Positions 4,340 through 32,485 of a DNA stretch of 34,999 nt are shown piece by piece. The notes beneath the pieces are model-generated. The model searched no databases. It had not been told where the DNA came from and worked only from the letters and a program-made list of their open reading frames with translations. The DNA is taken from the NCBI GenBank assembly GCA_008080735.1, contig SHMW01000042.1:1-34999 (forward strand), given 5' to 3'. The translations under genes and the position numbers were made by a program. How positions within the stretch are numbered: position 1 is the stretch's first letter; each line of letters begins with the position of its first letter. The DNA is from Promethearchaeota archaeon. Its GTDB lineage: Archaea; Asgardarchaeota; Lokiarchaeia; Sigyniarchaeales; SOKP01.

Positions 4340-5023
4340 TTAATAGTTTTCTTTCTTTAGTATAGCAAAGAGAAACAAATAGAGCCACACATATAACATA
4401 AGTGCTGAGATCCACTCAAATATTACAATTTCCATGTTGAAAAAAGAAAAAATAGCTAAAATTAGGAATAGAACCGTCGAAGAAATTAATCCGTAGAAAC
4501 CAATATGCTTATTGATTTTTATCTTAGAGAACAATACAAGAATTCCAACCAAGAAAGCGGAAAGATAATACCCCACAAATAGAAATCCAGCAAATATAAA
4601 ATGAATATTCCAATAATTACGATCAATAGAATATAATCCAATACCTATAAATCCAATGTCTCCCAAAATTCCAGAAATTAAAATAAGATACATTACAAAC
4701 TTGAAGGATTTAGGCGACTCTTCTTTAAATTCTTCATTAGTTTTTTCTTTTAGGTTATTGAAAATATATAAAGAAATTGGAAAGGATAGTATTCCAGTTA
4801 AAATACAGCCAATATCAAATAAAAAAGGAGCTGGTGTAAATTCAGCGCTGGCCATATGGCTAATTAAATGATATAAAGGAGAATACATTGGATTACCAAA
4901 AAATCGGACGATTATATAACTCAAAAAAAATGTAAACCAGTTAACTGCTATTGTGGTCAAAGTAATATATTTAATTATCTTTCTTTTCATTAATTTTTGA
5001 TATAAAGTGGATAAAAAAGTCAT
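4340..5023 (-). CDS. DUF998-like multi-pass membrane protein (paralogue 1)
   Basis: About 6 TM helices; motifs YSPLYHLISHM, PFLFDIGCILTG, GFIGIGLYSIDRN..IHF, FEWI; clearly similar to 5183-5902. Confidence 0.65.
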   Translation of the reverse strand: MTFLSTLYQKLMKRKIIKYITLTTIAVNWFTFFLSYIIVRFFGNPMYSPLYHLISHMASAEFTPAPFLFDIGCILTGILSFPISLYIFNNLKEKTNEEFKEESPKSFKFVMYLILISGILGDIGFIGIGLYSIDRNYWNIHFIFAGFLFVGYYLSAFLVGILVLFSKIKINKHIGFYGLISSTVLFLILAIFSFFNMEIVIFEWISALMLYVWLYLFLFAILKKENY

Positions 5024-5182: not shown

Positions 5183-5902
5183 TCAATTTTTCATAGTTTT
5201 TAGGTATCTTGGACTCTTACTCAATACATTATATAAGAAGGGATAAAGCCATGAGACCATTATAAAATTGGCGATCCATTCAAAAAGGATCCATTCAATT
5301 GAAAACAAAAGCAAAACAACGGAAATAATAAATACAAAGATTGAACTGAAAAACCCATATAAAGCAACAAATTTATTGATTTTTATTTTAAAAAATATAT
5401 ATAAAGTTCCCACAAGAAAAGCCAAAAAGTAATATCCTGCGAATAAAGTAATGAAAAAAATAAAATGAACATTAAAAAAATTCCGATCTACTGAAAATAG
5501 TCCAACCCCCATAAATCCAATATTGCCCAAAAAACCAGAAATAAGGATAAGATTCAGATTGGTTTGAAGCAAGTGATTATTTTCAACATACGGTTTAGTT
5601 TTTATTCTCAGAGAGTGATATACATAGATAGATATTGGAAAAGAGAATAAACCTGCAAAAATACACCCAATATCAAAAATAATGGGAAAAGGTGAGAATT
5701 TTAAACTTCCAAGATCACTAATATAATGAAAAACGGGAGAATAGTAGTTTTCCCCGATAAGAATGACCAATAAAATACTTGAAAAGAAGGCAGTCCAATA
5801 AATTATGATTGCTGAAATAGTAAAAATTTTTGCAACCTTTTTCTGTAATAATTGTTGATACATATTGCCTGGAAGGCTCTTTAATGTGGAAAGAATCGAC
5901 AT
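5183..5902 (-). CDS. DUF998-like multi-pass membrane protein (paralogue 2)
   Basis: YSPVFHYISDLGS, IIFDIGCIFAG, GFMGVGLFSVDRN..VHF, FEWI; tandem paralogue of 4340-5023. Confidence 0.65.
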   Translation of the reverse strand: MSILSTLKSLPGNMYQQLLQKKVAKIFTISAIIIYWTAFFSSILLVILIGENYYSPVFHYISDLGSLKFSPFPIIFDIGCIFAGLFSFPISIYVYHSLRIKTKPYVENNHLLQTNLNLILISGFLGNIGFMGVGLFSVDRNFFNVHFIFFITLFAGYYFLAFLVGTLYIFFKIKINKFVALYGFFSSIFVFIISVVLLLFSIEWILFEWIANFIMVSWLYPFLYNVLSKSPRYLKTMKN

Positions 5903-6003
5903 TTTAAAATGCTCTATTTAACATTGTATTTTTGGTTATTATGAAAAAAAAATTCTCATATTTTAATTTATCCAAAATCAAAGTCAATATTAAGGGGGTA
6001 GTC

Positions 6004-6468
6004 TTATTCAATATTGGAATTGTTCTGTTTTTTAAGAGGGCCTAATTTTTTAATTCTTTTGGTAAATTCGGTAATTAAATCAGCGAATCTTCTCCCCTCA
6101 GAAGCGCTAACCCATTCAAGTCTAATGCGATCAGAATTTAAACCGATTTGTTTAATAATTATTTCAAAAAGATTTTCAAATCTTTCTTTAGTATGCTCAT
6201 TTCCCGAAATATAATGACAATCCCCAATATGACATCCCGTTATCAGTACACCATCCACGCCGTCATTTATAGCTTTAAGAATAAATGATGGATCAACTCT
6301 ACCAGAACACATAACTCTAATAATTCTAATATTAGGAGGATATTGAAACCTTGAGACACCTGCTAAGTCTGCTCCCGCATAGGAGCACCAATTGCAGCAA
6401 AAAGCTAATATCTGAGGATTAAAATTTTTCTTGCTAGATTTTATACGAGATTTTGACATAAACATCAT
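6004..6468 (-). CDS. mvhD: MvhD/FlpD-family [2Fe-2S] subunit, cysteine form
   Basis: Motifs AFCCNWCSYAGADLAG, RVMCSGRVD, GCHIGDCHYISGN, RLEWVSASEG. Its start overlaps the hdrA stop (TAATG). Confidence 0.93.
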   Translation of the reverse strand: MMFMSKSRIKSSKKNFNPQILAFCCNWCSYAGADLAGVSRFQYPPNIRIIRVMCSGRVDPSFILKAINDGVDGVLITGCHIGDCHYISGNEHTKERFENLFEIIIKQIGLNSDRIRLEWVSASEGRRFADLITEFTKRIKKLGPLKKQNNSNIE

Positions 6469-9400
6469 TACTCCAAATAGGGTTCTTCATCAATTAAATA
6501 TGAATCAATCATTTCATTAATTTGATTAAAATCATAATGCTTCACAGAAATTGCACCAACTGGACAGGTTGCGGCACAAGTTCCACATCCCTTACATAGA
6601 GCTGAATTAATTTTCGATTTTATTATATCTATAGTAATATCTTCAAAAACAAGGGTTTTATTTTGTAAATCTATGGCATTATAAGGACATACTTCTTCAC
6701 ATTTACCGCATCCAATACATTTTTCTGTGATTACTTCAGCAATTAATCCAGATGTCGTTATTTCTCCAGCACTTAAGAATCTACATGCTCTACCAGCTGC
6801 TCCATGAGCTTGTGAAATTGAATCTTGAACGTTTTTAGGCCACTGTGCACAACCACATAGAAAAATACCATCTGTAGCAAAATCTAATGGTCGTAATTTT
6901 ACATGTGCCTCTAAGAAAAAACCGTTTCTATCTAATGGCACTTTTAACATTTTTGCTAATTCTCTTACATTATCAGCGGGTATTAAGGGAGTAGAAAGGA
7001 TTATTAAATCTGATTTAAATTTTAAGGTATCTTGTAAGTTTTTATCAAATATTTTTACTTCATAATTCTCTTTAGCTTCTTTTAATTTTGATATTTTAGG
7101 AATTTTGTCTAAATCGTATCTTAAAAAGATAGCATCCTTTCTATGTACTCGATAATAATTCTCAAATTTCTTCTTAGCCATTTGTATATCTCTATATAAC
7201 ACAATTATTTCCAATTCTGGCTTGAGCTCTTTTAATACAGCAATATTCTTTATAGAAATCCCACAACAGATATTTGAACAATAGGTAAATCCTTTTTTTT
7301 GTCTCGAATTTACACATAATATAAATGTTACGTGGTTTATTTTTCTCAACCAATCAGTTCCTTCTTCCTTAAGCTTCTTTTCTAAGTCTTTTTGAGTGAG
7401 AATATTACTATTCTTCTCTGAATATAGAAAAATACCTTCTGGGATAAATTCTTTGGCTCCAGTTGCTACGATGATTGTTCCTACAAAGAGCTCTTCGGTC
7501 TTATTTAGGGAATTGGAAATGGAAATCTCATAATTACCTATATATCCTTTTATTTCCTTTATTTTTGAATTTAAATAGATTTTGATATTTTTTTGCTTTC
7601 TTAATCTTTCAATATGGTCTTCTAAAAATTCCGCAGCATTTTTTTGATTTGGATAAAGAATATGAATATCGTTAAGTAAACCCCCTAATTCATTATCTTT
7701 CTCAACAAGATGAACTTTAAATCCTTTATTTGCTATATCTAATGCGGCAGTAATTCCAGATATTCCACCCCCAATCACCAATCCAGCTGGTTTAATATTT
7801 AAAGCTTCTTCCTTCTGCGGTTGTAAAAGTCTCGCTTTAGAAACAGCCATTCTAATTAGATCCTTCGCTTTTTGAGTAGCAGATTCTTTTTCCTTCATAT
7901 GCACCCATGAACATTGGTCTCGAATATTTACCATTTCAAAAAGATATTTGTTTAAGCCAGCTTCTTGACATGTTTCTTGAAATAAAGGTTCATGAGTTCT
8001 CGGTGTGCAAGAAGCAACAATAAATCTATTTAAATTTTCCTCGTCAATTAATTCTTTTATCCTCTCTTGAGAATCACTTGAACATGAATAAAGATTGTCT
8101 TCGCAATGAATTACATTAGGTAATTTTTTTATATAATCAACCACCTTAGGAACATCAACATATTTTCCAATATTTATACCACAATGGCAAATTAAAACTC
8201 CAATTCTGGGAGAATCTGCGCTTTTAACCTCTTTTTCAGGATTTTCAAATATTTTTTCTAGTATTTGGGAAAATTTCTCTGAATTAAGAAGGGAGGCTAC
8301 CTGAGATGCCACACCACTAGCATTCGCTACTGTTTCAGGAATATCCATTGGACCTTGACAAAATCCTGAGAGAAATATCCCATTCCGAGTGGAAAGTGAT
8401 TTATTAAAATAAGAATCCTCCTTAAAAAAATTGTAAGTGTCTAATTCAATCCCTAAAATCTCAGCTAATTCTTTCGTTCCCTTAGAAGGAACTAATGGAG
8501 TTGCTAAAACCACTAAGTCAGCTTCGAATGTCTCTAATTTTCCTGAAGAGAGGTTTTCATAACGGATTAATAGATTTTTAGTTTTGAGATCTTCACTGAT
8601 TTTGCTGATCTTTGTCTGTATATAAGTTACTCCATATTCATCTTGAGCTCTTTGGGTGAATTCATAAAAATCTTTGCCATAAGCTCTTAGATCATGTCGA
8701 AAAACAAAACATTGAGAATTATCAGCATGTTCTTTCGTTATAATTGCTTCTTTAGCAGTATACATACAACATACACTTGAGCAATAAGGAACTCCCTCAT
8801 GTAGATCTCTAGAGCCAGCACATTGGATAAAAGCAATTTTATGTGGTTCTTCCTCATCACTAGGTCTTAAAACATGACCTCCGAATGGTCCCGATGCGCA
8901 CAAGATCCTCTCATATTCTAATGCGTTTATAACATTATCAAATCTATATCCCCATCTTGATGAAAGTTCCTTTCCGTACATATCAAATCCAGTAGCAACG
9001 ACAATGGCACCAACATTTATATCAAATTCTAAAGATTTTTGATCATAATCGATAGCTTCAACTTTACAAACTTTACTGCATACTCCACAGACATCTTTGG
9101 TTAATTTTAAACATAAACTAGGATCTATAAGATATACAGGAGGTACTGCTTGTGGAAACGGAATGTATATTGATTTACGTTTTCCAAGATTCATATCAAA
9201 TTCATTTGGTACTTCAATTTTGGGACATTTAGCAGCACAATCTCCGCACCCCTTACATTTCGATTCATTTATATAGCGAGGCTTTTTTAAAACCGTAACT
9301 GTAAAATTACCTACTTTACCAGAAACCTTTTCAATCTCATGATAAGTTAATAATTCTATATTAGGATTTCTATAAACTTCTACCATTTTTGGTGCTAATA

Positions 9401-9578
9401 TACACAACGAACAATCATTTGTTGGGAAAGTTTTATCCAATTGAGCCATGCGCCCCCCAATTGAAGGTGATTTTTCCACTAAATAGACCTTAAATCCTAA
9501 TTCTGTTAAATCAAGTGAAGTTTGAATCCCTGCTATTCCCCCCCCAATTACCAAAACTGATCCTTCTATTTTTTTCAC
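6468..9578 (-). CDS. hdrA: Double-length HdrA-like flavo-iron-sulfur protein (two FAD modules), cysteine form
   Basis: Two GGGIxG FAD motifs; IGGRMAQLDKTFPTNDCSLCILAPKM; inserted 2[4Fe-4S] ferredoxin; IQCAGSRD...YCSSVCC; internal CHCGINI and ASCTPRTHEP; C-terminal CIGCGKC/CKGCGTC ferredoxin. GTG start overlaps the upstream TGA. Confidence 0.92.
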   Translation of the reverse strand: MKKIEGSVLVIGGGIAGIQTSLDLTELGFKVYLVEKSPSIGGRMAQLDKTFPTNDCSLCILAPKMVEVYRNPNIELLTYHEIEKVSGKVGNFTVTVLKKPRYINESKCKGCGDCAAKCPKIEVPNEFDMNLGKRKSIYIPFPQAVPPVYLIDPSLCLKLTKDVCGVCSKVCKVEAIDYDQKSLEFDINVGAIVVATGFDMYGKELSSRWGYRFDNVINALEYERILCASGPFGGHVLRPSDEEEPHKIAFIQCAGSRDLHEGVPYCSSVCCMYTAKEAIITKEHADNSQCFVFRHDLRAYGKDFYEFTQRAQDEYGVTYIQTKISKISEDLKTKNLLIRYENLSSGKLETFEADLVVLATPLVPSKGTKELAEILGIELDTYNFFKEDSYFNKSLSTRNGIFLSGFCQGPMDIPETVANASGVASQVASLLNSEKFSQILEKIFENPEKEVKSADSPRIGVLICHCGINIGKYVDVPKVVDYIKKLPNVIHCEDNLYSCSSDSQERIKELIDEENLNRFIVASCTPRTHEPLFQETCQEAGLNKYLFEMVNIRDQCSWVHMKEKESATQKAKDLIRMAVSKARLLQPQKEEALNIKPAGLVIGGGISGITAALDIANKGFKVHLVEKDNELGGLLNDIHILYPNQKNAAEFLEDHIERLRKQKNIKIYLNSKIKEIKGYIGNYEISISNSLNKTEELFVGTIIVATGAKEFIPEGIFLYSEKNSNILTQKDLEKKLKEEGTDWLRKINHVTFILCVNSRQKKGFTYCSNICCGISIKNIAVLKELKPELEIIVLYRDIQMAKKKFENYYRVHRKDAIFLRYDLDKIPKISKLKEAKENYEVKIFDKNLQDTLKFKSDLIILSTPLIPADNVRELAKMLKVPLDRNGFFLEAHVKLRPLDFATDGIFLCGCAQWPKNVQDSISQAHGAAGRACRFLSAGEITTSGLIAEVITEKCIGCGKCEEVCPYNAIDLQNKTLVFEDITIDIIKSKINSALCKGCGTCAATCPVGAISVKHYDFNQINEMIDSYLIDEEPYLE

Positions 9579-10837
9579 TTCCTATCTTTTATTTTTTCTT
9601 GATTGATTTGTATAAAATTTATGATAAATTCAGTAAAATCCAGAATTTTTATCGATGAAATATCTTCAAAATCATTTTGTAAGCATTTGAAATGTAATTC
9701 GCATTTTGGGCATGTCGACACCATAATATTACTCACCTCTTTTGCCTCTAAAAGCCGTTTATATCTTAGAGCTTTTGACCTTTCATTACAATTCATCCAG
9801 CTACTTACACCACAACATAAGGAATTCGCTTTGTTATGTTTCATCTCATTAAACTTATGTCCTACCTTTTCTAATTGATAGAATATTTCTCTAATTTTTT
9901 CCATAATATTATTTTGTTTTGGAAGAAATCTACTAAATCTACAAGGATCATGAAATGTAAATATTAATTTCTTATCTAATCCTTTTTTTAGTTTAAAAGA
10001 AATAATTCCCTCTTCCCACTTTTCATAAAGATACTCTATTATGTGTTTTATTTCGAACCTTTCATTAAAATCTTTAAATAATTTAGGATAATCAATTTTA
10101 AAAGTTCTATATCCCTCTGCGCACGATGTGATGATTGTTGAGACGCCTGCTCTCTCAAAATTATCGACATTTTTTTTAGCTAATTCTATGAATTCCTCCA
10201 CTTTCCCTTGACCCCAATATAAATCATGACCACAACAAAATTCATCCTCAAGTACAACAATAGGATCTTTTTCTATCTTGGAAATCATTTTTAGACTATT
10301 CATGGGAATAGCATCCATCTCATCGAATTCAAATTTAAAATACGGAAGACATCCCACATGGAATAATAGGTCCCCCGATTCAGAAATCTTGATTTCTTTC
10401 GGAATCCATCTTAGATCTCTCTTAGGTTGAATTTCATAGTTTGCAGAAATTTCGGAAATCATAGTATAAATGCCTTTATGAGCAATTTTTTGATCTGGGT
10501 TATTCTGATACTGATTTATCATTTGATATTTCGCAACTCTTACGAGGTCGGCAAAATTTATATCTTCGGGACAATCTTTCATACAACTATTACACATCAA
10601 ACAATCCCAAAGCACTCCACTCTCCAAAATTTTACCCTCAAAACCTTCGAGAATTTTTTGAATTATTCTACTTGGCCTAAAATCTTGGACTTTGCTTATT
10701 TGGCAAACTCCAGTACATCGAGCGCATTGATAACATCTTTTCAGTAATTCTCTTAAATCTTGTTGATGTAAACTGCGTAGATCTTCTTCATTATAATTTT
10801 CTTTTCTGTATGGTGCTTTTTTTTTTGTTTCTGTCAT
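9575..10837 (-). CDS. HdrD-like Fe-S oxidoreductase (HdrC-type 2[4Fe-4S] domain plus two CCG domains)
   Basis: CYQCARCTGVC and CLMCNSCMKDCP; CCG domains FHVGC...EFCCGH...SCAEG and FHDPC...CCG...TCPKC. Confidence 0.85.
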   Translation of the reverse strand: MTETKKKAPYRKENYNEEDLRSLHQQDLRELLKRCYQCARCTGVCQISKVQDFRPSRIIQKILEGFEGKILESGVLWDCLMCNSCMKDCPEDINFADLVRVAKYQMINQYQNNPDQKIAHKGIYTMISEISANYEIQPKRDLRWIPKEIKISESGDLLFHVGCLPYFKFEFDEMDAIPMNSLKMISKIEKDPIVVLEDEFCCGHDLYWGQGKVEEFIELAKKNVDNFERAGVSTIITSCAEGYRTFKIDYPKLFKDFNERFEIKHIIEYLYEKWEEGIISFKLKKGLDKKLIFTFHDPCRFSRFLPKQNNIMEKIREIFYQLEKVGHKFNEMKHNKANSLCCGVSSWMNCNERSKALRYKRLLEAKEVSNIMVSTCPKCELHFKCLQNDFEDISSIKILDFTEFIINFIQINQEKIKDRK

Positions 10838-11961
10838 AATTTAAGGTTAATATTTAAATTCTTCATGAACTTTTCTTTCCTTTCAATTTTCTTTTTAGAG
10901 AATGCAGAGAGGATATTTTGAATTCTGAATATCTCATCATCAGAAATCCCTCTGAGTTTAATTAGTCCCGCATCTCTTACTTTTTGGAATAATAGTTTTC
11001 CTTTCTCCGTTCTAATAATAACAGTAGTATATTTCTTGGGGGAACCTAATCCTCCAAAAGAAATATCTGCATAAATATTAGTAAAATCATCACAAGCATT
11101 ACATGCAACACGCATATAATCTTTCATGTAATTAAATGGAATATGCATTTCTTTATGTGGTTCTTGATTATCACCCATCTGGAAAATCAAATCCTCTTTC
11201 ATGTTGATTTTCTTTATCTTTTCGAATTCAATATTAAAATCCTTTTCGAATTTGTCTAATTGGGATCTATCAAAAAGGAAGTTTTCATAACAAAATAGGC
11301 CAAGACAAATCTTAACATTTTCTGATGGAGTGACTCCCAAACTTTGCATACAGCGAATACTATATATTTGACAAGGAGTTCCGACAAGAGCTAATTTATT
11401 GAATTTATAATTTTTTAATTCTGGAATTGTATGGGTGTATGTCGAAAATTTTTGAAGTTCGATCAACTGTGGAGAAATATTTAATTGAGTGCCCGAAGAA
11501 TCTATGAGCTCTTCCTTATTTTTAGCATAAATAGCTTCCCGTGAAAATGGTGCCTCGGTCTTTGAGACGATAGAACCATCGATCTCGTCGATTTCTAATA
11601 GATAATTAATAATCGTATTAACTATTCCTCCATCAGTTCCATTTTTTAAAAAGTCTTTATCATTGGATTGACATGAATAAATTTCGAGATAATTTCCTAT
11701 AGGCATTGAAGAAAAGCCTTCAAATAAATATATTTTATTTAATTCATCGTCTAGAACACGTGTTTGAGGGCAAATATAATAACAAATACCACACTCAAGG
11801 CAATCATCTTCATTTATATATACTGGAGGAGAATATGGGTCAACAAAATTTATAATATCATACTCTGCGGAACTACAAAAACTAACACAGCCTCCACATT
11901 GTTGACATATACCTCTCTCGTGTACATCTTTAATTAAATCTTCAAAAGTTTTTGTTGCCAT
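10834..11961 (-). CDS. FrhB/FdhB/FpoF-family coenzyme F420-binding subunit with an N-terminal ferredoxin
   Basis: CQQCGGCVSFC and CLECGICYYICP; GTDGGIV, VGTPCQ, LGLFCYENF, CNACDDFTNIYADISFGGLGS. Confidence 0.88.
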   Translation of the reverse strand: MATKTFEDLIKDVHERGICQQCGGCVSFCSSAEYDIINFVDPYSPPVYINEDDCLECGICYYICPQTRVLDDELNKIYLFEGFSSMPIGNYLEIYSCQSNDKDFLKNGTDGGIVNTIINYLLEIDEIDGSIVSKTEAPFSREAIYAKNKEELIDSSGTQLNISPQLIELQKFSTYTHTIPELKNYKFNKLALVGTPCQIYSIRCMQSLGVTPSENVKICLGLFCYENFLFDRSQLDKFEKDFNIEFEKIKKINMKEDLIFQMGDNQEPHKEMHIPFNYMKDYMRVACNACDDFTNIYADISFGGLGSPKKYTTVIIRTEKGKLLFQKVRDAGLIKLRGISDDEIFRIQNILSAFSKKKIERKEKFMKNLNINLKL

Positions 11962-11971
11962 AATTTTGATT

Positions 11972-13474
11972 TCATTTATTTTCGGTTAATTTAATAGGTT
12001 TACACTTATTTCTCTTTATTCCAGCTATCTTTTCTACCAAAAATCTACCTGGTTTTACCTCTGTTAAATCTTTCGATTCAATTAAACCATCTTTTATAGC
12101 GGCTTGATATAGTTCTTCTCCTTTTTCGTTTCTAGTTATTACAGAAGACCATCCTGCTTGAGAACCTATAGATCCTACTGAAATGTCGGCAAAATCTGAT
12201 GTAAGATCTTCACAAAAATGGCAAGTTTCGCGAGCATAGGCTTGTATTTCTTTTAAAGGAACATCCAATTCTTCCCCCGATTTTAGATTAATTATGAATT
12301 TACCTTTATCAATATTCATTTTCACTAGATCTTCTATATTCTTATCGAATTTTTCCTCAACTAATTTGATAATATTATCATAAGAAAAGGATTCCATACA
12401 AAACAAACCAATCTTATATTTAATGTTTGTAAAAAATGGATAGCCGCTTGGAAATAAAGATCCTTTCTCTATTGCTTTCATCATACAAGGAACACCAACT
12501 ATTGCAATGCCCTCATATTGCTTTGATTGATCTAATATTGATAATGAAGCACAGTTTGCATATTTTGTACCTGCTGTCTTGTATAAATCCTTAAGATTAT
12601 TCACAATAACCGCTTTCGGATTCCAAAGGTCCTCTGAGTGTTTCACAGCAATTATTGCATCTACTACTTTATTTTTTAATAGATATTCTAAAAGTGTGGT
12701 TACTATACCACCATCTTGACAAGACTTTTTAATTTGATCTATATTAGTTGTTCCAGAATAGGTATTTAGATATGTCCCTATTTTTTCGGAAAATGTTAAT
12801 GATTCATTTAATTGTGATTTAAATTCACTTACCCTTTCGATAGGAAAGGATCGTGGACAGACTGTGAAACACAATCCACATTTAATACATAGCTCTTCAT
12901 CGACTTTTAACTCATCTGAATTTACGACAATTGCATTTACAGGGCATATAGCGGAACACCAACCACAATTACAGCATAGACCAGAATTATATATTATGGA
13001 TACAGGTTCAAAAATTCTCTCTACAAAATCTGCGTCTAATTTGTTAGCTTTATATTTAAAAATATGTTCCTCTTGCTCGACTTCTTTTTCTACCCCCTTA
13101 ATTTTTTTTTTCACTAATTTTATTTTAACTTCATTAGACTCCTCTATGTACCCTTGTTCTTTCAAATAAATAATATCTCTAAGTAAATACATAGGGTTTA
13201 AATTTGAGAATTTTCTAACAAGATCGTCTAATTTTAGAACTTCTTTGATTTTTCTTAGATCTTGTAAAAATAATTGACGTTCAGTTTCAGCATCAATCAT
13301 CGCATCAAGGATATGATAAAATTCTTGCTCAGTATATTTGCCTATCTCTAAGATTTCTTTCTTAGCTTCAAACAACGCTCTGATTTGGAAATTCTTGGTG
13401 GCTAAATAAGTTGCCTCCAAAACATCTTTTGGGGAATAATTTTTAAATTCAGTTTTTTGTATTAATTGATCCAT
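11972..13474 (-). CDS. FrhB-family F420-binding subunit with a ferredoxin domain and a ~150-aa N-terminal helical/wHTH-like extension
   Basis: CCNCGWCSAICP, CIKCGLCFTVCP, QDGGIVT, AGTKY, VGVPCM, IGLFCMESF, CHFCEDLTSDFADISVGSIGS. Confidence 0.88.
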   Translation of the reverse strand: MDQLIQKTEFKNYSPKDVLEATYLATKNFQIRALFEAKKEILEIGKYTEQEFYHILDAMIDAETERQLFLQDLRKIKEVLKLDDLVRKFSNLNPMYLLRDIIYLKEQGYIEESNEVKIKLVKKKIKGVEKEVEQEEHIFKYKANKLDADFVERIFEPVSIIYNSGLCCNCGWCSAICPVNAIVVNSDELKVDEELCIKCGLCFTVCPRSFPIERVSEFKSQLNESLTFSEKIGTYLNTYSGTTNIDQIKKSCQDGGIVTTLLEYLLKNKVVDAIIAVKHSEDLWNPKAVIVNNLKDLYKTAGTKYANCASLSILDQSKQYEGIAIVGVPCMMKAIEKGSLFPSGYPFFTNIKYKIGLFCMESFSYDNIIKLVEEKFDKNIEDLVKMNIDKGKFIINLKSGEELDVPLKEIQAYARETCHFCEDLTSDFADISVGSIGSQAGWSSVITRNEKGEELYQAAIKDGLIESKDLTEVKPGRFLVEKIAGIKRNKCKPIKLTENK

Positions 13475-13512
13475 CTTTTTTCCTATTTAATTTCTTTTAA
13501 AAATTTTAAATT

Positions 13513-13582
13513 TCCTCCTCCCCTTGCGAGGGTGTCAACTTATAACTATTATTTTTTTATAAGCTTCATTCAATTTGGAGGA
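13513..13582 (-). ncRNA. Eukaryote-like (Lokiarchaeal) SECIS element in the mvhD(Sec) 3' UTR
   Basis: Minus strand reads AUGA-AGCUUAUAA-AAAAAUAAUAG-UUAUAAGUU-GA-C (core 13534-13569). It has an AUGA/GA tandem G.A core, a 9-bp stem with one G-U pair and an A-rich apical loop. A possible lower helix is UCCUCC (13577-13582) pairing with GGAGGA (13513-13518). It sits directly downstream of two genes with in-frame UGA codons at Cys positions. Confidence 0.82.
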
Positions 13583-14016
13583 TTCGGTGATTCTATTTCT
13601 TGTAGATTAAGTTTGATCGGGTTATGTCCTTCCATTTGAACCTTTTCAAAAGCATCTTCAACACTTTTAACAAATTTCTCTGATTCTGCTGAGCTTAACA
13701 TATACATATTTACTCGCATATCCCCGAGACCTCTTCGACTTAAAATCCTATTAGCTAGGTCCACATGTTTTTGAGCATTAAAATTTCCCGCTTTGAACTG
13801 ACATTCATGTGGGCGTCAACCCACAACCATCACACCGTCACAACCGCTTTTAATGGCGTAGAGAATATGCTTTACATCTATTCTTCCCGTGCATCTCACT
13901 TTAATAATCTTTACTGAGGGTGTATATTTCATGCGAGACACTCCCGCTAAATCCGCAGCGGAGTATCCTCATTTGAGACAAGCAAAACAGATTATATAGT
14001 AATTATTTTCTGTCAT
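13570..14016 (-). CDS. mvhD: MvhD/VhuD selenoprotein, 148 aa, Sec16 and Sec67
   Basis: Manual translation from ATG 14016: MTENNYYIICFACLK-U-GYSAADLAGVSRMKYTPSVKIIKVRCTGRIDVKHILYAIKSGCDGVMVVG-U-RPHECQFKAGNFNAQKHVDLANR...PNPPN*. The TGA codons at 13969-13971 and 13816-13818 align with CCNW-C-SY and G-C-HIGDC of the Cys paralogue at 6004-6468. A GGAGGT Shine-Dalgarno lies at 14022-14027. Confidence 0.9.
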
Positions 14017-14018
14017 TT

Positions 14019-15980
14019 TTAACCTCCAGACAAAATTCCTTCAATTTCTGCATAAATTTGATTATCTCTAAAATATCGTATATCAATTGCTTGTGTTGGA
14101 CAGCAAGTAGCGCAAATTCCTCAACCATCACAGTTGATTTCATCTACGGTTGCTTTTACACCTTCTTCTAATTTGATTGCACCCTTAGGACATTCTTTAA
14201 CACATCTATGACAGATAATACATCTGTCCTCATCTACTTCTGCAACAATTAATTCAAGATCAATTTGCCCGGCAGATGTCATTTCAGCTACCTTACTTGC
14301 TGCCGCTCTAGACTGAGAAACTGAGTAGGCAATATCTTTTGGTCCTTGAGCAAATCCTGCAATAAAGATTCCCTTTGTGTTGGTTTCTTGGGGCATTAAG
14401 CCGAAGTGAGATTCAGTCAAGAAGCCATTTTTATCTACATCCAAGTTCAACACATCGGCTATTTGCGCTGTACCTTTTGAAGGTAAGGCGGCGGTTGATA
14501 AGATAACTAAATCCGCATTAATATTGATGATTTCATCGGTCAAAGATGAATAAACTCGTAGTTTAATGTCCTTTGTATCATTGTTTTCTTCAAATTCTCC
14601 CACTTTCCCTCTTATAAGTCTTATATTTGATTCTTTCGCGTGTTGATAATATTCTTCAAATCCTTTTTCGTTGGTTCTCATATCGATGTAGCATATTGTT
14701 ATTTCTGCGTCAGGGAACTCTTCTTTTAATAATTTCGCATTTTTTAACGCAAGCATACAGCAGACTCCGCTGCAATAGGTTCTCTCTTTATCCCGACTGC
14801 CAACACACTGGATGAATACAATTTCTTTTGGTTCTTTTTCATCTGACACACGTCTCACATGACCGCCTAATGGGCCATTTGGAGCAAGCATCCGTTCCAG
14901 TTGAGCTTGGTTGATTACATTTTCAAATTTGCCATATCCATATTCATCATATGGTTCATAGATATCCCACCCAGTCGCGATGATAATCGATCCTACCTCG
15001 ATTTGTTTTTCTTCTGGAATTTGGGAAAAATCGATGGCATCGAGTTCACATTCTTCCACACAACTAAAGCACTCAACGCATGAATTTCGATCAATATCAT
15101 AAAGAAAAGGAACAGCTTGACCAAACGCTATATCTATAGCTTTTCTTGCACCCAAATATTCATCAAAATAATTTGGAATATATATGGGACATACTTCCGT
15201 ACAGGCACCACAACCATTACAATCGTCGGTTATATATCTCGGTTTCTTTTCAATGCAGATCTCGTAATTTCCAACGTAGCCCTTAACTTCTTTAACTTCT
15301 GCATAAGACATTATCTCAATATTTTCATTTCTGCTGACTTCCAACATCTTTGGACCGCAGATTCAGATCGCACAATCATCAGTAGGAAAGGTTCTGTCTA
15401 ATTGAGCCATCCGCCCACCAATCGTCGAATTCTTTTCTACGAGATACACCTTTATACCTTGATTCGCTAAATCTAATGCGGCATTCATCCCTGCTATACC
15501 AGCCCCAATAACTAATGTAGATTTTTTCACGGGAACTGTTTTAATAGGGACTGTTTCTAAAAGTCTTGCACGCTCTAAACCACTGAGTACTAATTTTTTT
15601 GCTTTCTCGGTCGCTTGGTTAGGATCATCTGTACACCAGCTACAATGCTCTCGTACGTTCACCATTTGGTAATAATAGGGATCTAACCCCGCTTTCGAAA
15701 GAGTGTCTCTATAAATGGGTTCATGGGTTACTGGTGTTCAAGCGGAAGCAACGACTCTTGTGATATTTTTTTCTTGGATATCATTCATTATTTCAGTTTG
15801 ACCACTTTCAGTGCAAAGAAAAGAATGGGTTTTGGAAACGACAACATCATCGAATTGCTTTGCAAAATTTACTAATTCTCCGCAATCTACTTTACTTTTA
15901 ATGTTTATGCCTCACTGACACGCATAGAAGGATATTCTTTCGTTTTTTTGTTCATTCCGTTGCATAATATTTTTTAACAT
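14019..15980 (-). CDS. hdrA: Heterodisulfide reductase subunit A selenoprotein, ~653 aa, four Sec (U23, U81, U206, U620 counted from ATG 15980)
   Basis: One frame joins ORF-track fragments 15363-15665 and 14121-15347. In-frame TGA codons lie at 15912-15914 (YACQ-U-GINI), 15738-15740 (VVASA-U-TPVTHEP), 15363-15365 (TFPTDDCAI-U-ICGPKM) and 14121-14123 (NCDG-U-GICATCCP). The frame ends ...EGILSGG-TAA at 14019. The length matches canonical HdrA. Alternative starts are GTG 15992 and ATG 15965. Confidence 0.9.
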
Positions 15981-15993
15981 ACTTTTTTTCACA

Positions 15994-15999
15994 TCACCT
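15994..15999 (-). promoter_or_regulatory. Shine-Dalgarno-like AGGTGA upstream of hdrA(Sec)
   Basis: Minus strand TAAGGTGATGTGAAAAAAAGTATG; archaeal GGTGA-type ribosome-binding site 13 nt before ATG 15980. Confidence 0.4.
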
Positions 16000-16329
16000 T
16001 ACTAGCAATTAAAATTTCAATTAGGATAATATATGTATAGTTTGTGATCAAATTCTATAAAAATATTTATATTCGTTTTGAGTTTTATCTATTTCTCTCC
16101 TAATTGATCTCGTTATTAACAATATTTATGAATTTGGTCTTTAAAATGTTTTCTATTTATTTAGATAGCTAAACAAGATATCATTCATGATTGGATCCGA
16201 CAGATTTTACCTAATTCAGAAAATAGAAAATGTTTAATAGTTGGAAAGGATAGTTTTTTAAATTAGGATGATCACAATTAATGATAATCAGAATTCGAAT
16301 TATCGGATCTGATAATCCTAGAAGAATTC

Positions 16330-17928
16330 ATGTCAAATATAGAATTTAATCCTATAGAGGTTTATAATAAACGGCAAGAATTAGGACTCTCAACTGCAGT
16401 TCAATTATTAATCCAGATTATAAATTCCCAAGAAGAGCTTTCCACAAGAAAAGAAGCGATTAAAATAATCGGTTCAATAGAAAAGATACCTGATAATGCT
16501 AAGGAAGTCTGTTTTCAAACATTGGAGAATGTAATAATTTCTGAAAAAACCATTGAATTAAAATGTGAAGCTGCAAGATCTATGGGAAAAATTAAATTGA
16601 AAAAGTCCCTTGAACCCTTAAAATGGATTTTGGAGAATTCTTCGGATGCACTTGATGCTGAAATGGAAAAAACGGTACTAAAAGCCATTCATAGTATCAG
16701 ATTTGAAAAACCAGAGATAGATTTATTTATAAAATACTTGGATTCCGATTATAAAGTTACCAGAGAATATGTGAGCTATGAATTATTAAACCTCCCTCCT
16801 AATGAGGCAATTAACATGCTTTTAGAATCATTTAATACTGAAATTTCTAATTCATGTAAGATTGAGGTTGTAAAATTAATAGGAAAATATATCTCGAGTC
16901 TAAATGTAAGCTATAATGATTCTAATTATCTTAAGATAAAGCATCCAGCAATTTTAGAAAGTATCTCAAGCCATAAAAAGGATTTTACTTCTTTGCTTTC
17001 TCTTATTGATAAAAAAGATAAGGAGCTAATTAAAAGGATTTTAACAATATTTCGGTTATTAGGCAATGAGATAAATTCAGAATTAATTGAATTAGTCAAA
17101 GATGAGGAGTTCATCGCGAAGGAAAATGCGATATATTTGATAGGGAAGTTAAAGATCAAGAGCGCGATGGGCTTATTATTGGAAAACATAGATAATATGT
17201 ATAGTGAAATCAGTATAGCCTCAATCAAGGCTTTAGCTGACATTGGAGATGCCTCAATTATCCCAGAATTGTTAAAGTCTCTAAATGTAGAAGATATTGA
17301 TTTCGAATATATTGATATGGATATGAAGTGGTATATCATTGACACGATTAAGCAAATTTATCTCCAAGATGAAAGTATTAGCTACGAAACTTTATTATCC
17401 CAATTAGACCACCCCAATGAAATTCTCAAAGAATCTATTGCCTATATTTTAGGAGAACTGGGTAATAAGCAGTTTGTGGAACCATTACTCGCATTATTGA
17501 AAAGAAAGGAAAATATTGATGTGAAAAAAAATGCGATCATCGCTTTAGGGAAAATTGGGGGATATGAGGCAATTGAACCATTGATAACCTATGCAGAAAA
17601 CCCAAAAGTGTATTGGTTGCTTAAAAAAATCGTGATTGACGCGGTGCTTAATATTTACAACGATAACTGGTATCAAGTTAATTCTAATGAGGAGATAAGG
17701 AGACTTCTAATAAAAAATAGAGCGCGATTGAGTGATTATCTAAAGGAACATAATAATGAATGTTATAAGATCAAACTAGGAATAATCAAATTTCTCGAAA
17801 AATTTGGTGATAAAGCTGCCATCGACGCGCTTTTTGCAAATGTAAATGATTTTCATCGAATTGTACAGATTTCTGCTCAAAACGCAATAAAATCCATCAG
17901 TGAACGATTAGAAGAACCTCAAAACTAA
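16330..17928 (+). CDS. HEAT-repeat (PBS-lyase HEAT-like) alpha-solenoid protein
   Basis: Repeated units such as EAARSMGKIK, ENAIYLIGKLK, ASIKALADIGD, ESIAYILGELGN, NAIIALGKIGG. Confidence 0.85.
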   Translation: MSNIEFNPIEVYNKRQELGLSTAVQLLIQIINSQEELSTRKEAIKIIGSIEKIPDNAKEVCFQTLENVIISEKTIELKCEAARSMGKIKLKKSLEPLKWILENSSDALDAEMEKTVLKAIHSIRFEKPEIDLFIKYLDSDYKVTREYVSYELLNLPPNEAINMLLESFNTEISNSCKIEVVKLIGKYISSLNVSYNDSNYLKIKHPAILESISSHKKDFTSLLSLIDKKDKELIKRILTIFRLLGNEINSELIELVKDEEFIAKENAIYLIGKLKIKSAMGLLLENIDNMYSEISIASIKALADIGDASIIPELLKSLNVEDIDFEYIDMDMKWYIIDTIKQIYLQDESISYETLLSQLDHPNEILKESIAYILGELGNKQFVEPLLALLKRKENIDVKKNAIIALGKIGGYEAIEPLITYAENPKVYWLLKKIVIDAVLNIYNDNWYQVNSNEEIRRLLIKNRARLSDYLKEHNNECYKIKLGIIKFLEKFGDKAAIDALFANVNDFHRIVQISAQNAIKSISERLEEPQN

Positions 17929-18096: not shown

Positions 18097-19590
18097 ATGA
18101 CCGAAAATAATACCGAAAAAGCAAGCAAAAAATACGAGTATTCTTTCGATTACATACAAAAAAAATTAGAGGGAAAGAAAGACAGCTACGGTATGCTGAT
18201 GAAGGAGATTGTTCGTACGGGTGTCTGTACCGAATGCGGTACATGTGCTGCCGTGTGTCCCGTTCTGGAGTGGGACCATTTAGCAGGGCAACCCAAACTG
18301 GTGGGCAAATGTACCGGCTGTGGCATATGTTATAACCAGTGTCCTCGAACAATTACAGATCCCGACCAGCTTATCGGAGAGTTCAAAACGGGTTATGTGA
18401 CTAACACAGATATCCCCGAAGCCATTGGATATCAAGATGGAGGGACTGTGACCAGTCTTTTGTGCTATCTATTTGACGAGCATTTAATCGATGCGGCCAT
18501 TGTCACGATGAAAGATCCGGAAAAGCCGTGGTTTCCTGTTGCGCAAATCATTACAAATAAAGATGATGCGATTCGATCATCTGGATCTATTTATTGCCAT
18601 TCGCAAACTGTTGAAGCCTTAATGGAAGCGGTTCGGGAAGATTATCGTTCCATAGCATTTGTTGGAACCCCGTGTAATATAAACGCGGTTAATAAGATGT
18701 ATAACTCACCAACAGGAATGCTAAAATATTTCATGCGAGCCAATATCCTTACCATTGGACTATTTTGTATGGACTCATTCGCACCGGAAGCATTATATCC
18801 GTTCTTTGAAAGAGAAGGAGTAGATTTATCAAAAGTAGAAAAGATGGATATCAGTAAGGGAAAGTTCCATATATACTATGATGAAGATGGAGAGCCGGTA
18901 AAATCCTACAAGATTAGCCAATTAGATAAATTTAAATCATCCAGCTGCAACTTCTGTACCGATTTGACGGCAGAAGAGGCAGATATCTCAATAGGATCCG
19001 TAGGAAGCGGTGCAAACAAGAATACGGTCTTTGCACGTTCTGGCATTGGTACGGAAATTATTGAAGATGCGGGTAAAAAAGGATATTTAACCGTTGAACC
19101 ATTCAATGCGATCAATTTAAATTCAGTGCTTTTCCTTGCTAAGTTGAAGAAAGTGAGTCAATACAACATTCAGAAGAGAAAGGTCTTCATCGTACGAGAT
19201 AGAGATGAGGAAGAGGAACCGAAAATCGAGTCAAAACCGGAAGAAGGGCAGAAGCCTACTTTCGATATTAAACCGATCATCGATGCTCGTCGGGCACTAA
19301 GTGTGAAAAGAAACCTCAATGAAGAAGCCAAGACCTTAGAATTATCGATAACAAACACAATCGGATTCTTACTTGAAGATCTAAAGATCAGGATTGCCAT
19401 TGTAGACGACGTTTTTGAAAAAAACGTATGGAATACTAAAATCAAAGAGCTCTTTCCTTATGAGGAAATTGACGTAAATTATCCATTAGAAGAAAAAGAC
19501 GGTGAATTAATACTTGGTGAAGTGCTTATAGAAGCATCGACGCAAAAATACGGAAAAATATACTCAAAAACCTACAAGTTGAAAAAATAA
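18097..19590 (+). CDS. FrhB-family F420-binding protein with a ferredoxin domain, an acidic linker and a C-terminal Ig-like domain
   Basis: CTECGTCAAVCP, CTGCGICYNQCP, QDGGTVT, VGTPCN, IGLFCMDSF, CNFCTDLTAEEADISIGSVGS; extra ~100-aa beta-rich tail after RDRDEEEEPK. Confidence 0.85.
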   Translation: MTENNTEKASKKYEYSFDYIQKKLEGKKDSYGMLMKEIVRTGVCTECGTCAAVCPVLEWDHLAGQPKLVGKCTGCGICYNQCPRTITDPDQLIGEFKTGYVTNTDIPEAIGYQDGGTVTSLLCYLFDEHLIDAAIVTMKDPEKPWFPVAQIITNKDDAIRSSGSIYCHSQTVEALMEAVREDYRSIAFVGTPCNINAVNKMYNSPTGMLKYFMRANILTIGLFCMDSFAPEALYPFFEREGVDLSKVEKMDISKGKFHIYYDEDGEPVKSYKISQLDKFKSSSCNFCTDLTAEEADISIGSVGSGANKNTVFARSGIGTEIIEDAGKKGYLTVEPFNAINLNSVLFLAKLKKVSQYNIQKRKVFIVRDRDEEEEPKIESKPEEGQKPTFDIKPIIDARRALSVKRNLNEEAKTLELSITNTIGFLLEDLKIRIAIVDDVFEKNVWNTKIKELFPYEEIDVNYPLEEKDGELILGEVLIEASTQKYGKIYSKTYKLKK

Positions 19591-27934: not shown

Positions 27935-29470
27935 ATGAGTAAATGGAACAGAATTCTATTAGTTAATGCGAATTATAAAACCAGTGGTTATGACTTTTAT
28001 GATTCTGCATTCCCCCCATTAGCCTTAGAATACATCGCCGCCTATGTAAAAGACATCGCTGATGTCGACATCTTGGATACTAAAGCAGAGGGTCTTAACT
28101 TTCGGCAATACTACGATCGTCTAAAAGAATATAACCCCGATATAGTCGGATTCACGGTCCCTGTGACTAGTGCGATCAATCATGTATTGGAATATGCAAA
28201 AATTGCAAAAAAAATGGGATTTACCACCATTATAGGTGGATGGCATCCTACACTCGCGGTTGAGCAAACACTCTCATCTCCATGGATTGATATCTTAGTA
28301 CGGGGAGAAGGTGAATTTACATTTCGAGAATTGATTCAAAATGAGTCTCCTAAAGATGTAAAGGGATTATCATACAAAGAGAACGGAAAGCTCATACATA
28401 ATCCTGATCGTCCGTTCATGAAGAATTTAGACACATTAAGATTTCCAGCAAGACATTTAGTGAGAGAAAACGATTATAAGATTTTCAATCTAAATTGTGA
28501 TGCTATTGAAACTTCACGTGGATGCCCTCAAGGATGTAAATTCTGTAGTACTCATGTTGTGTATAAAAGAAGTTGGCGACCTCGATCAGTCGAAAATGTG
28601 ATGAAGGAATTAGAACTTATATCAAAGAATAAGAAAATTGAGGATGTTTTTTTAGTTGACGACAATATCTTAGTCGATATGAATCGAATGAAGAAATTGT
28701 GCATAGCCATCATTAAAGCCAAAAACGAGGGGAGAATTAGAAAGAATTTGTATTTCTTTTTCCAAGGAAGACTTGACTCGATGGCTAGATATCCAGAAAT
28801 CACCAAATTGATGGGAAAAGCAGGTTTCTGGCTCGTTTTAGTAGGTGTAGAAGCCACGGATGATGAGAACTTGAAAAAGGTTCAGAAAGGTTGTAAAATT
28901 AATCAAATCGAAAGAGGGATTGAAGTTCTTCATGAATGCGGGATTGTAGTGATGGGCAATGTGATTATTGGAATAAATTTAGATGATGATGTGGAAACAG
29001 TACTTCATACCATCAGAAAAACTAGTGAGTTAACTCTAGATCTACCTAGCTTTACTCTATTAACTCCATTTCCCGCAACGGGTTTTTATAAAGAGATGAA
29101 AGAAAAGAATTTGCTATTGACGGAGGATTATTCTAAATTTAATTGGCTCAACCCAGTTATCAAAACCCCTAATTTTAGTCCAGAAATTCTCCAGAGATTG
29201 CTCTTTTTTGGGTTTTATTATGTTTCATATTATGGGGGAGGATATAAAAATAAATTAAAACTGCTTAAAAAAGTAATAAAAAAGCGCGGGATTAAGTTTA
29301 TTCTCAACCCAGGAAGAATTTATAGAGGAATAAAGGCTTATTTTGGATGGAGAAGGATTGTCCTGAATAACTTAAGCCAAATCGAAGAAGCAATTAGTAA
29401 AAAAATGCGAGTCAGAGACGTCTCGAGGGATAAAAAGCTAAAAAAAGCTATAATAATGGAATCAATCTGA
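27935..29470 (+). CDS. Cobalamin-binding radical SAM enzyme (paralogue 1)
   Basis: B12-binding domain PPLALEYIAAY...GGWHPT...RGEGE; ETSRGCPQGCKFC (CX3CX2C); DDN; LTPFP. Confidence 0.9.
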   Translation: MSKWNRILLVNANYKTSGYDFYDSAFPPLALEYIAAYVKDIADVDILDTKAEGLNFRQYYDRLKEYNPDIVGFTVPVTSAINHVLEYAKIAKKMGFTTIIGGWHPTLAVEQTLSSPWIDILVRGEGEFTFRELIQNESPKDVKGLSYKENGKLIHNPDRPFMKNLDTLRFPARHLVRENDYKIFNLNCDAIETSRGCPQGCKFCSTHVVYKRSWRPRSVENVMKELELISKNKKIEDVFLVDDNILVDMNRMKKLCIAIIKAKNEGRIRKNLYFFFQGRLDSMARYPEITKLMGKAGFWLVLVGVEATDDENLKKVQKGCKINQIERGIEVLHECGIVVMGNVIIGINLDDDVETVLHTIRKTSELTLDLPSFTLLTPFPATGFYKEMKEKNLLLTEDYSKFNWLNPVIKTPNFSPEILQRLLFFGFYYVSYYGGGYKNKLKLLKKVIKKRGIKFILNPGRIYRGIKAYFGWRRIVLNNLSQIEEAISKKMRVRDVSRDKKLKKAIIMESI

Positions 29471-29477
29471 TGTGATT

Positions 29478-30941: not shown

Positions 30942-30999
30942 TATTCTATAATTTACTAAATTATAAAAAATAAACATAGATAGGAAAACCCATCTGAAT

Positions 31000-31524: not shown

Positions 31525-31687
31525 TTAGTATGTGAGCACCTAATTAATATGCTTAAAAGATTTAGGAATTGTTTTATTCATAGTGGATCTAATTATTTGC
31601 AGTTTAAAAATTATAGTTGGAATAAATATAGATCTAGAGTGAAATTTGGAATTGTTTCAAAGTAAACCTAAGCGAGTTTTTCAGAGA

Positions 31688-32389: not shown

Positions 32390-32485
32390 GCGTGTTTTAA
32401 AACCATTCCAAATGTTTCTGATTTTCTCAATAAAATTTTTTAGAGAAATAAAATATCTTCACCCATATATTCCTTTTAATTTGAA

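Follow-up and report, generated by a model that had tools for sequence, protein, structure and literature searches.

A conserved seven-gene Hdr-FrhB operon of a Lokiarchaeial genome and its probable role in F420-linked electron bifurcation

Contig SHMW01000042.1 of the Promethearchaeota archaeon assembly GCA_008080735.1 (Asgardarchaeota; Lokiarchaeia; Sigyniarchaeales) carries, within its first 34,999 nucleotides (the whole stretch that was analyzed, hereafter the window; ~32% G+C), an operon of seven genes encoding two HdrA proteins, two MvhD-type adaptors, two FrhB-family proteins (FrhB500 and FrhB375) and one HdrD-like protein. We propose that these products probably form a soluble HdrA-type system for flavin-based electron bifurcation (FBEB) or confurcation, in which F420 replaces H2 or formate as the mid-potential substrate. 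This role is read from the gene content, the conservation of the operon, sequence motifs, the predicted FrhB fold and the F420 biosynthesis genes of the genome (a 4.1-Mb assembly, 93% complete). Systems of this kind are already known, namely Elp-Hdr, Fdh-Hdr, HdrA2B2C2, the type II HdrA-FdhB clusters of anaerobic methanotrophic archaea (ANME), the Korarchaeial clusters and BamDEF, and the operon is an Asgard variant of them. We found no description of the seven-gene arrangement in the searchable Asgard literature, which names Hdr only as 'HdrABC', 'MvhADG-HdrABC' or 'FlxABCD-HdrABC' and mentions frhB once, as an expressed gene. A preliminary description of this DNA had proposed a hydrogenase-free, soluble F420H2:ferredoxin bifurcating or confurcating complex acting on a disulfide; the gene content, the motifs and the FrhB fold speak for such a system, whereas the disulfide acceptor and the absence of hydrogenases from the genome as a whole fared less well.

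All seven genes lie on the minus strand between positions 6004 and 15980 and are tightly packed. Their junctions are exactly the gaps and overlaps reported previously: in operon order, gaps of 2, 95 and 10 nt, followed by overlaps of the ATGA, GTGA and TAATG type. The family of each product was supported by both Pfam and NCBIfam profiles (Table 1); for the second MvhD (MvhD2), the NCBIfam match is to the C-terminal (MvhD) part of HdrA2 (1e-58). Among the open reading frames (ORFs) of the window, we found no NiFe large subunit, no molybdopterin enzyme and no separate HdrB or HdrC, in agreement with what had been noted for the locus. The canonical MvhADG-HdrABC set is likewise missing from the window, and genes for HdrB, HdrC and MvhA/MvhG occur on other contigs of the assembly (C29 and C102).

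Table 1 Features of the operon and its upstream neighborhood.
Feature	Position	Strand	Size and evidence
HdrA type I (Sec-HdrA)	14019-15980	minus	653 aa; NCBIfam HdrA2/HdrA E=2e-230
MvhD/VhuD-type [2Fe-2S] adaptor (Sec-MvhD)	13570-14016	minus	148 aa; Pfam FlpD 1.4e-40, NCBIfam VhuD 5.8e-46
Eukaryote-like SECIS	13514-13569	minus	in 95-nt gap; motif, covariation, literature
FrhB500	11972-13474	minus	500 aa; Pfam FrhB_FdhB_N + _C; NCBIfam PRK09325
FrhB375	10834-11961	minus	375 aa; Pfam FrhB_FdhB_N + _C
HdrD/BamD-like	9575-10837	minus	420 aa; Pfam CCG + Fer4
Type II (fused, two-core) HdrA	6468-9578	minus	1036 aa; three-piece match to 5ODC_A
Second MvhD (MvhD2)	6004-6468	minus	154 aa, Cys only; Pfam FlpD 3.5e-55
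HEAT-repeat (PBS-lyase type) gene	16330-17928	plus	Pfam, NCBIfam; divergent from operon
Third FrhB paralog	18097-19590	plus	497 aa; divergent from operon

Given its recurrence in relatives, the seven-gene arrangement is real and far beyond chance. Almost every genome sampled from the host's family has an HdrD-like ortholog, with 55-73% identity. The complete order, HdrA-MvhD-FrhB500-FrhB375-HdrD-like-fused HdrA-MvhD, is kept in 8 of the 20 loci retrieved from relatives, covering six genera of the family, and also in 17 Promethearchaeota contigs from metagenome-assembled genomes (MAGs) of a public species collection, where related loci were retrieved with the HdrD-like alignment as the query. 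This survey of Asgard gene neighborhoods thus bore out the arrangement. It also revealed variants: paralogous clusters 10-19 kb away carry either fused HdrA-HdrD-like-fused HdrA-MvhD or a single FrhB, and Helarchaeota, including Hel_GB_A, possess HdrA-MvhD-FrhB-HdrD-like-fused HdrA-MvhD with one FrhB. In Asgard MAGs, the HdrD-like homologs bear generic names only, i.e. '(Fe-S)-binding protein' or 'HdrD'.

Parts of the operon also occur separately. Outside the Asgard archaea, ~35 loci (in bacteria, one Thermoplasmata and one Nitrososphaeria) carry a fused HdrA-MvhD-HdrD-like-(HdrA)-MvhD core; the core is found widely among anaerobic bacteria, and its bacterial hosts belong to Thermodesulfobacteriota, Syntrophales, Desulfomonilaceae, WOR-3, Calditrichota, Chloroflexota and others. 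None of these ~35 core loci has an FrhB gene within 10 kb, which fits FrhB being an added F420 input module. One bacterial core locus adjoins genes for carbon monoxide dehydrogenase, CooC and a pterin-binding methyltransferase, a Wood-Ljungdahl context. The HdrA-MvhD-FrhB triad, for its part, stands alone on two contigs of the same assembly (C87 and C13) and in Helarchaeota. The operon looks like two portable modules joined together, one a triad for F420-type input and the other a core of HdrD-like protein, fused HdrA and MvhD.

Both HdrA proteins could be assigned to a type by comparison with solved structures. Sec-HdrA aligns end to end with 9SFI_A, 8RVU_a and 5ODC_A and has all the features of type I, i.e. 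an N-terminal Fe-S domain, a TrxR-FAD core with inserted ferredoxin, a Cys197-type ligand and a C-terminal 2x[4Fe-4S] domain, with predicted selenocysteine (Sec) at four ligand positions. The 1036-aa protein matches 5ODC_A in three pieces (residues 8-378 to 146-511, 455-588 to 2-135, and 886-1026 to 516-648). In the N-terminal half, one TrxR-FAD core is combined with the Cys197-type motif and the inserted ferredoxin, and the N-terminal domain and the C-terminal ferredoxin are absent. The C-terminal half supplies the N-terminal Fe-S domain and the C-terminal ferredoxin along with another TrxR-FAD core, which has neither the Cys197 motif nor the inserted ferredoxin. The Lys/Glu hallmark of the FAD site is present in both cores (K276/E223 and K777/E733). 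With two complementary cores and the FBEB Lys/Glu residues, this fused protein is by its sequence a type II HdrA. Complementary halves of tandem or fused HdrA have been described in ANME (PMC9012536) and correspond to the 'type II HdrA' of PMC12054007. Together with the one FAD module of Sec-HdrA, the two of the fused protein make up the three that had been counted before.

The first two genes of the operon contain in-frame TGA codons, four in Sec-HdrA (U23, 15912-15914; U81, 15738-15740; U206, 15363-15365; U620, 14121-14123) and two in Sec-MvhD (U16, 13969-13971; U67, 13816-13818), the true stop of the latter being the TGA at 13570-13572. All six align with cysteines of relatives. U206 corresponds to Cys197 of solved HdrA, a position at which chain 9SFI_A shows X, presumably Sec, and U620 lies in the C-terminal ferredoxin motif. 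Both Sec-MvhD positions are invariant in the ortholog alignment (with TGA read through), and both codons are also present in the three paralogous pairs of the same genome. The 95-nt gap behind Sec-MvhD holds a selenocysteine insertion sequence (SECIS), as had been claimed, consisting of AUGA (13566-13569), a 9-bp stem (13557-13565 with 13537-13545), an A-rich apical loop that starts with AAAAA (13546-13556) and GA (13535-13536), with a small GC hairpin after the GA. The architecture is kept in 14 homologous loci, in which the stem letters change and the pairing stays. An Rfam scan of positions 5500-16500 gave no match and the thermodynamic z-score of this A/T-rich region is not significant; the SECIS call therefore rests on the motif, the covariation and the literature. 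In the latter, an hdrA-frhD/mvhD selenoprotein pair with one common type I eSECIS-like element has been published for Asgard archaea (PMC11227280), and the first two genes and the SECIS found here have exactly that arrangement. That paper, whose reference 32 is an earlier Lokiarchaeia study, discusses the two genes as encoding selenoproteins; in its accessible parts, the genes for FrhB, the HdrD-like protein, fused HdrA and MvhD further downstream go unmentioned. Beyond the SECIS core, the coding end of mvhD (CCUCC) pairs with a downstream GGAGG as a closing helix; in relatives, the GC hairpin and this helix (13514-13534 and 13573-13590, minus strand) vary in sequence and keep their pairing.

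FrhB500 is the proposed F420 site, and motifs and fold support its prediction as a canonical F420/FAD module. Behind its helical and winged-helix region (residues ~1-150) come a ferredoxin domain of the 2x[4Fe-4S] type (~160-210) and the F420:FAD oxidoreductase domain, which carries a single [4Fe-4S] cluster. It scores 271.8 against the FrhB subfamily profile of NCBIfam (PRK09325; cut-off 269), and its best solved relatives are FwdI (8RJA_E) and FrhB (3ZFS_C). The motifs QDGG, GTKY and FCMExF (FCMESF here), along with all twelve Fe-S cysteines, are invariant in 11 orthologs that include distant families. The three motifs correspond to the FAD loops of Methanothermobacter marburgensis FrhB, i.e. 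QDGG at 24-27, a loop at 71-77 and a loop at 131-138 with Cys134 (PMC3930138). An AlphaFold2 model (pLDDT 86) matched 8RIU_B, 8RJA_E and FrhB in Foldseek at TMt 0.81-0.90; F420 reduction has been measured with FwdI and with the zeta subunit of ACDS (PMC11493965; 8RIU, 8RJA). The first ~150 residues have no Pfam match and are modelled as helices plus a winged helix, and nearly all of the top VIA-align rows for this region are winged-helix proteins, at middling Z values of 6-6.7.

FrhB375 comprises a 2x[4Fe-4S] ferredoxin domain and a divergent FrhB domain. Its best solved relative is again 8RJA_E (3e-41) and its Fe-S cysteines are all kept, while its NCBIfam score of 176.6 bits is below the cut-off of 269, so the features of the FrhB module are only partly present. 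A complex prediction for FrhB375 and MvhD2, run without alignments, gave a median ipSAE of 0.04, a value that counts neither for nor against binding.

The rest of the genome is consistent with an F420-using, presumably non-methanogenic Asgard archaeon, as had been supposed. The affiliation agrees with the Gtr1/RagA and Arf-family GTPase genes of the window and with the closest HdrD-like homologs, which are found in Promethearchaeota (Lokiarchaeia) MAGs. The search for F420 biosynthesis genes retrieved cofH (466 bits; cut-off 374) with a cofG-like neighbor, as well as cofD and cofE, also above cut-off. An F420-dependent Mtd is encoded and a Mer-like match is weak, and McrA was not found in a search of this 93% complete genome.

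The term 'hydrogenase-free' is true of the locus but not of the genome, which has two group-3c hydrogenase loci. The one on C29 encodes a winged-helix-HdrA-MvhD fusion followed by MvhG and the NiFe large subunit (MvhA). In this locus (C29:244-5023), the fusion is extended at its N-terminus by an ArsR-like winged helix, and the CC pair is missing from its TrxR-domain cluster. The other locus (C102:1-1770) is cut by the contig start inside vhuA; behind the end of this gene come hdrC, hdrB and vhuU, the last of which contains Sec. A genome of the same genus, G135, has this operon as VhuG-VhuA-HdrC-HdrB-VhuU. PmbA/TldD genes lie upstream of it there, and neither hdrA nor mvhD is adjacent, so the Vhu-HdrCB operon must take HdrA and MvhD from elsewhere. 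The genome under study has four Sec-type HdrA-MvhD pairs, on C42 (the contig of the window), C13, C87 and C49, of which three directly precede an FrhB-family gene. The pair on C49 is an orphan, with no FrhB, HdrBC or hydrogenase gene nearby, and would be the simplest partner for the Vhu enzyme. Over the whole genome (contigs C13, C20, C87, C49 and C19 in particular), HdrA-type genes number at least nine, three of which encode the fused type II form, and there are ~19 genes with CCG domains; FrhB_FdhB_C was matched seven times, in six or seven genes. For a genome of 4 Mb, bifurcation-type modules are very strongly expanded.

The wiring that we propose follows, by analogy, the cryo-EM wiring of Elp-Hdr and of the benzoyl-CoA reductase of class II (BCRII). 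In Elp-Hdr, an FrhB/FdhB-type subunit feeds HdrA via MvhD (PMC12350162), and the ANME type II HdrA-FdhB(-HdrD-type I HdrA) clusters provide a further precedent for an input of the FrhB/FdhB type (PMC12054007, PMC9012536). A hydride of F420H2 would be transferred to the FAD of FrhB500, which would release single electrons via the three [4Fe-4S] clusters of this protein to the [2Fe-2S] cluster of an MvhD adaptor, and these would go on to the bifurcating FAD of an HdrA core. The high-potential electron would exit via the HdrD/BamD-like subunit to a disulfide or to a protein such as electron-transferring flavoprotein (ETF). The reverse direction is possible, in which reduced ferredoxin would yield F420H2 for Mtd and Mer. 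The two HdrAs might work in series (double bifurcation, as speculated in PMC12054007) or as two arms. In this way, the system would tie the F420 pool of the tetrahydromethanopterin-dependent Wood-Ljungdahl pathway (Mtd, Mer-like) to ferredoxin without hydrogen. Complex formation, the direction of electron flow and the acceptor are what we infer in this scheme. A more ambitious version, to which we give little credence, has one supercomplex with two bifurcation sites in series (the Sec-containing type I HdrA and the BamE-like fused HdrA), two FrhB arms and a partner that is neither CoM-S-S-CoB nor H2, e.g. ETF or a new thiol. If true, a non-methanogenic Asgard archaeon would make very low-potential electrons or, in reverse, F420H2 for the Wood-Ljungdahl pathway, and the lineage that is closest to eukaryotes would have a redox hub that works without hydrogen.

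Several known systems resemble parts of the operon. With Elp-Hdr (ElpABC-HdrABC of M. marburgensis; 8RVU) and Fdh-Hdr-Fmd (Methanospirillum hungatei; 7BKB) (PMC12350162), it would share the path from an FrhB/FdhB-family flavoprotein via an MvhD-type adaptor to the FAD of HdrA, a path by which F420H2 is oxidized with no hydrogenase required. Unlike Elp-Hdr, the window has no ElpA/FdhA-like scaffold (no molybdopterin-family ORF), although homologs of the ElpB and ElpC families are present; one HdrD/BamD-like protein replaces HdrB and HdrC, the FrhBs are of the FwdI/FrhB type, a fused HdrA is added, MvhD and FrhB are each present in two versions in the operon, and the host is one in which no Mcr was found. 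The type II HdrA-FdhB-Molybdop clusters of ANME and Methanosarcinales (PMC12054007; HdrA3/4 in PMC9012536) likewise combine a fused complementary HdrA, an F420 dehydrogenase subunit and MvhD, with an optional extra type I HdrA plus HdrD for which double bifurcation was proposed (PMC12054007). In contrast to these, the present operon lacks the non-catalytic molybdopterin protein, contains two FrhB genes, has a type I HdrA and cognate MvhD that are predicted selenoproteins, and belongs to an Asgard archaeon that presumably does not metabolize methane; for HdrA3/4, Chadwick et al. give the opposite order of the two halves (PMC9012536).

The second half of the operon has the gene order and domain types of BamDEF from the BCRII of Geobacter metallireducens, as judged from the published description of the latter. 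In both, the HdrD-like protein has one non-cubane site with four Cys, the fused HdrA is a pseudo-dimer whose first core has a bifurcating Lys near 280 (K276 here), and the adaptor is MvhD-like. The differences are that BamBC/BamGHI partners are missing, that the window has no AOR or NuoEFG-like genes and that the input would be F420 via FrhB, not NADH or ferredoxin. Moreover, the second core has K777 where BamE has Gln768, and MvhD2 is short, all-Cys and without the winged helix of BamF, a domain that sits on FrhB500 here. The first half of the operon corresponds to the HdrA-MvhD-FrhB triad of Korarchaeia (PMC10667645), which is also hydrogenase-independent and tied to F420, whereas the Korarchaeial proposal includes neither a CCG subunit nor a fused HdrA. 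HdrA2B2C2 of Methanosarcina acetivorans is another hydrogenase-independent, F420-tied system, with HdrA2 being an HdrA-MvhD fusion that works with HdrB2C2 and CoM-S-S-CoB.

For the electron acceptor, there is an alternative to a disulfide. The HdrD-like protein consists of an HdrC-like 2x[4Fe-4S] domain, with HdrC matches in the PDB, and two CCG domains; its best NCBIfam match is TfrB (2.4e-27), in addition to HdrC and HdrB. All of its 19 cysteines are invariant in 15 homologs, including those of distant Asgard families. The motif of the second domain (CCG2) is complete, whereas the first (CCG1) has only four cysteines (C163, C201, C202 and C239), with CAEG in place of CxxC, in 15/15 homologs. 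In BCRII, BamD is HdrD-like with a blocked heterodisulfide pocket and a distal non-cubane cluster with four Cys ligands (disrupted in most BamD homologues), the bifurcating Lys280 of BamE, a dimer of fused HdrA, belongs to the first core, BamF is an MvhD-like adaptor and the high-potential acceptor is ETF (bioRxiv 10.64898/2026.04.10.717634). Because the HdrD-like/fused HdrA/MvhD order is that of BamD-E-F, a disulfide is only one possible acceptor, and the four-Cys CCG1 and the likeness to BamDEF, in which BamD reduces ETF, weaken the earlier idea of a thiol/disulfide substrate. It is possible, with well under even chances of being right, that the system is F420-linked and bifurcating and that the HdrD-like protein passes the high-potential electron to an ETF-type carrier or serves only in transfer or docking. 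The four-Cys CCG1, which resembles the BamD distal cluster, and the two EtfA genes of the genome favor this option, as does the McrA result, with which no CoM-S-S-CoB is expected. Other observations count against it: BamD and BamE were likened by description rather than by sequence, the second TrxR core keeps its Lys, MvhD2 is short and without Sec, unlike BamF, CCG2 is complete, the best NCBIfam match (TfrB) oxidizes thiols and no etf gene is located near the operon.

Other explanations concern the operon as a whole. H2 would be a substrate of at least part of the system if Sec-HdrA and Sec-MvhD were the missing subunits of the Vhu-type NiFeSe hydrogenase/HdrBC encoded elsewhere, an unlikely case in our estimation. 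It could account for the vhuA-hdrC-hdrB-vhuU(Sec) genes on C102 and the Vhu operon of G135, the latter without hdrA and mvhD, for the complete, canonical type I HdrA of the window and for the SECIS gap, which could end a transcript. Nevertheless, the orphan pair on C49 is a simpler Vhu partner and its availability makes the hydrogenase explanation unneeded for the pair in the window; in addition, the HdrA-MvhD-FrhB triad occurs three times in the genome and recurs across Asgard classes, and the hydrogenase on C29 has its own fused HdrA-MvhD. Slightly less probable still is a plain, non-bifurcating ferredoxin:F420 oxidoreductase in the manner of soluble FpoF/FqoF, with the HdrA flavins acting only as one-/two-electron switches. 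Such a non-bifurcating role was proposed for the Korarchaeial HdrA-MvhD-FrhB (PMC10667645), and it would suit the triads on C87 and C13, which have no CCG protein, but the strictly conserved HdrD-like output with its invariant cysteines and the fused HdrA with both FBEB residues would be superfluous for a two-substrate reaction. The presence of one Sec pair and one Cys pair within the same cluster might also recall selenium-dependent isoenzymes such as Vhu/Vhc of Methanococcus. We rejected this backup role, to which we attach almost no probability, because the two HdrAs differ in architecture (type I of 653 aa versus fused type II of 1036 aa; ~33-44% identity), the two MvhDs are ~36% identical and both pairs are kept together in every genome examined.

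Against the F420-linked bifurcating system, several points have to be set. The evidence that the products assemble into a complex is their gene order only, and the SECIS with its A/T-rich stretch splits HdrA(Sec)-MvhD(Sec) from the other genes, making a separate transcript possible. The Vhu-HdrCB operon elsewhere in the genome lacks its own HdrA and MvhD. The best tRNA-Sec match (RF01852, 37.9 bits) falls short of the gathering score (47); the MAG is 93% complete, and Aragorn reported only 12 tRNAs in it. In eight orthologs of FrhB375, two flavin loops are degenerate, with TDGG for QDGG and G[TAS][QKH][LF] for GTKY; consequently, the general statement that FrhB folds bind F420 agrees with the canonical motifs and fold of FrhB500, but F420 binding by FrhB375 is doubtful, and this protein may be a scaffold or the user of another substrate. 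Judged by bit scores, the Hdr-associated ElpB/FdhB type is more distant from both FrhBs than is the FwdI/FrhB/Fsr type (for FrhB500, 91 bits to ElpB, 8RVU_E, and 184 bits to 8RJA_E), which suggests a recruitment of the F420 module that was independent of the enzymes of methanogens. As their ferredoxin domain is N-terminal rather than C-terminal, MvhD docking cannot be copied from the solved structures.

The surroundings of the operon are partly conserved as well. The HEAT-repeat gene and the third FrhB paralog hold the divergent upstream position in several genera, and their membership in the system is uncertain; the third FrhB has a ~150-aa C-terminal extension without a family match. Just downstream of the operon, two paralogous genes for DUF998-like membrane proteins are found on the minus strand (5183-5902 and 4340-5023). 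At least 12 Lokiarchaeial loci have homologs on the same strand at no more than 10 kb from the operon, although the genome under study has only three such genes. The pair could be a conserved partner, e.g. a membrane anchor, or mere neighbors. Elsewhere in the window, reading through TGA yields ORFs in 31634-33958 and 27935-30959, namely a GCS2/GATase fusion with three TGA codons and two B12-binding radical SAM proteins with one TGA each; these TGAs may be Sec codons, gene boundaries or errors.

The BamDEF-type core appears, by analogy, to be a portable bifurcation module whose inputs differ, with NADH/ferredoxin in Geobacter and F420 in archaea. In metabolic models of Asgard archaea, and in the syntrophic accounts of eukaryote origins that build on them, ferredoxin is usually balanced through hydrogen by means of 'MvhADG-HdrABC' or 'HdrABC'. 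The operon points to a second route, independent of hydrogen, by which the F420 pool of the Wood-Ljungdahl pathway in archaea would be coupled to ferredoxin, and it may bear on the published Lokiarchaeal transcripts from sediment, among which hdr and frhB were seen and mvhADG was not.

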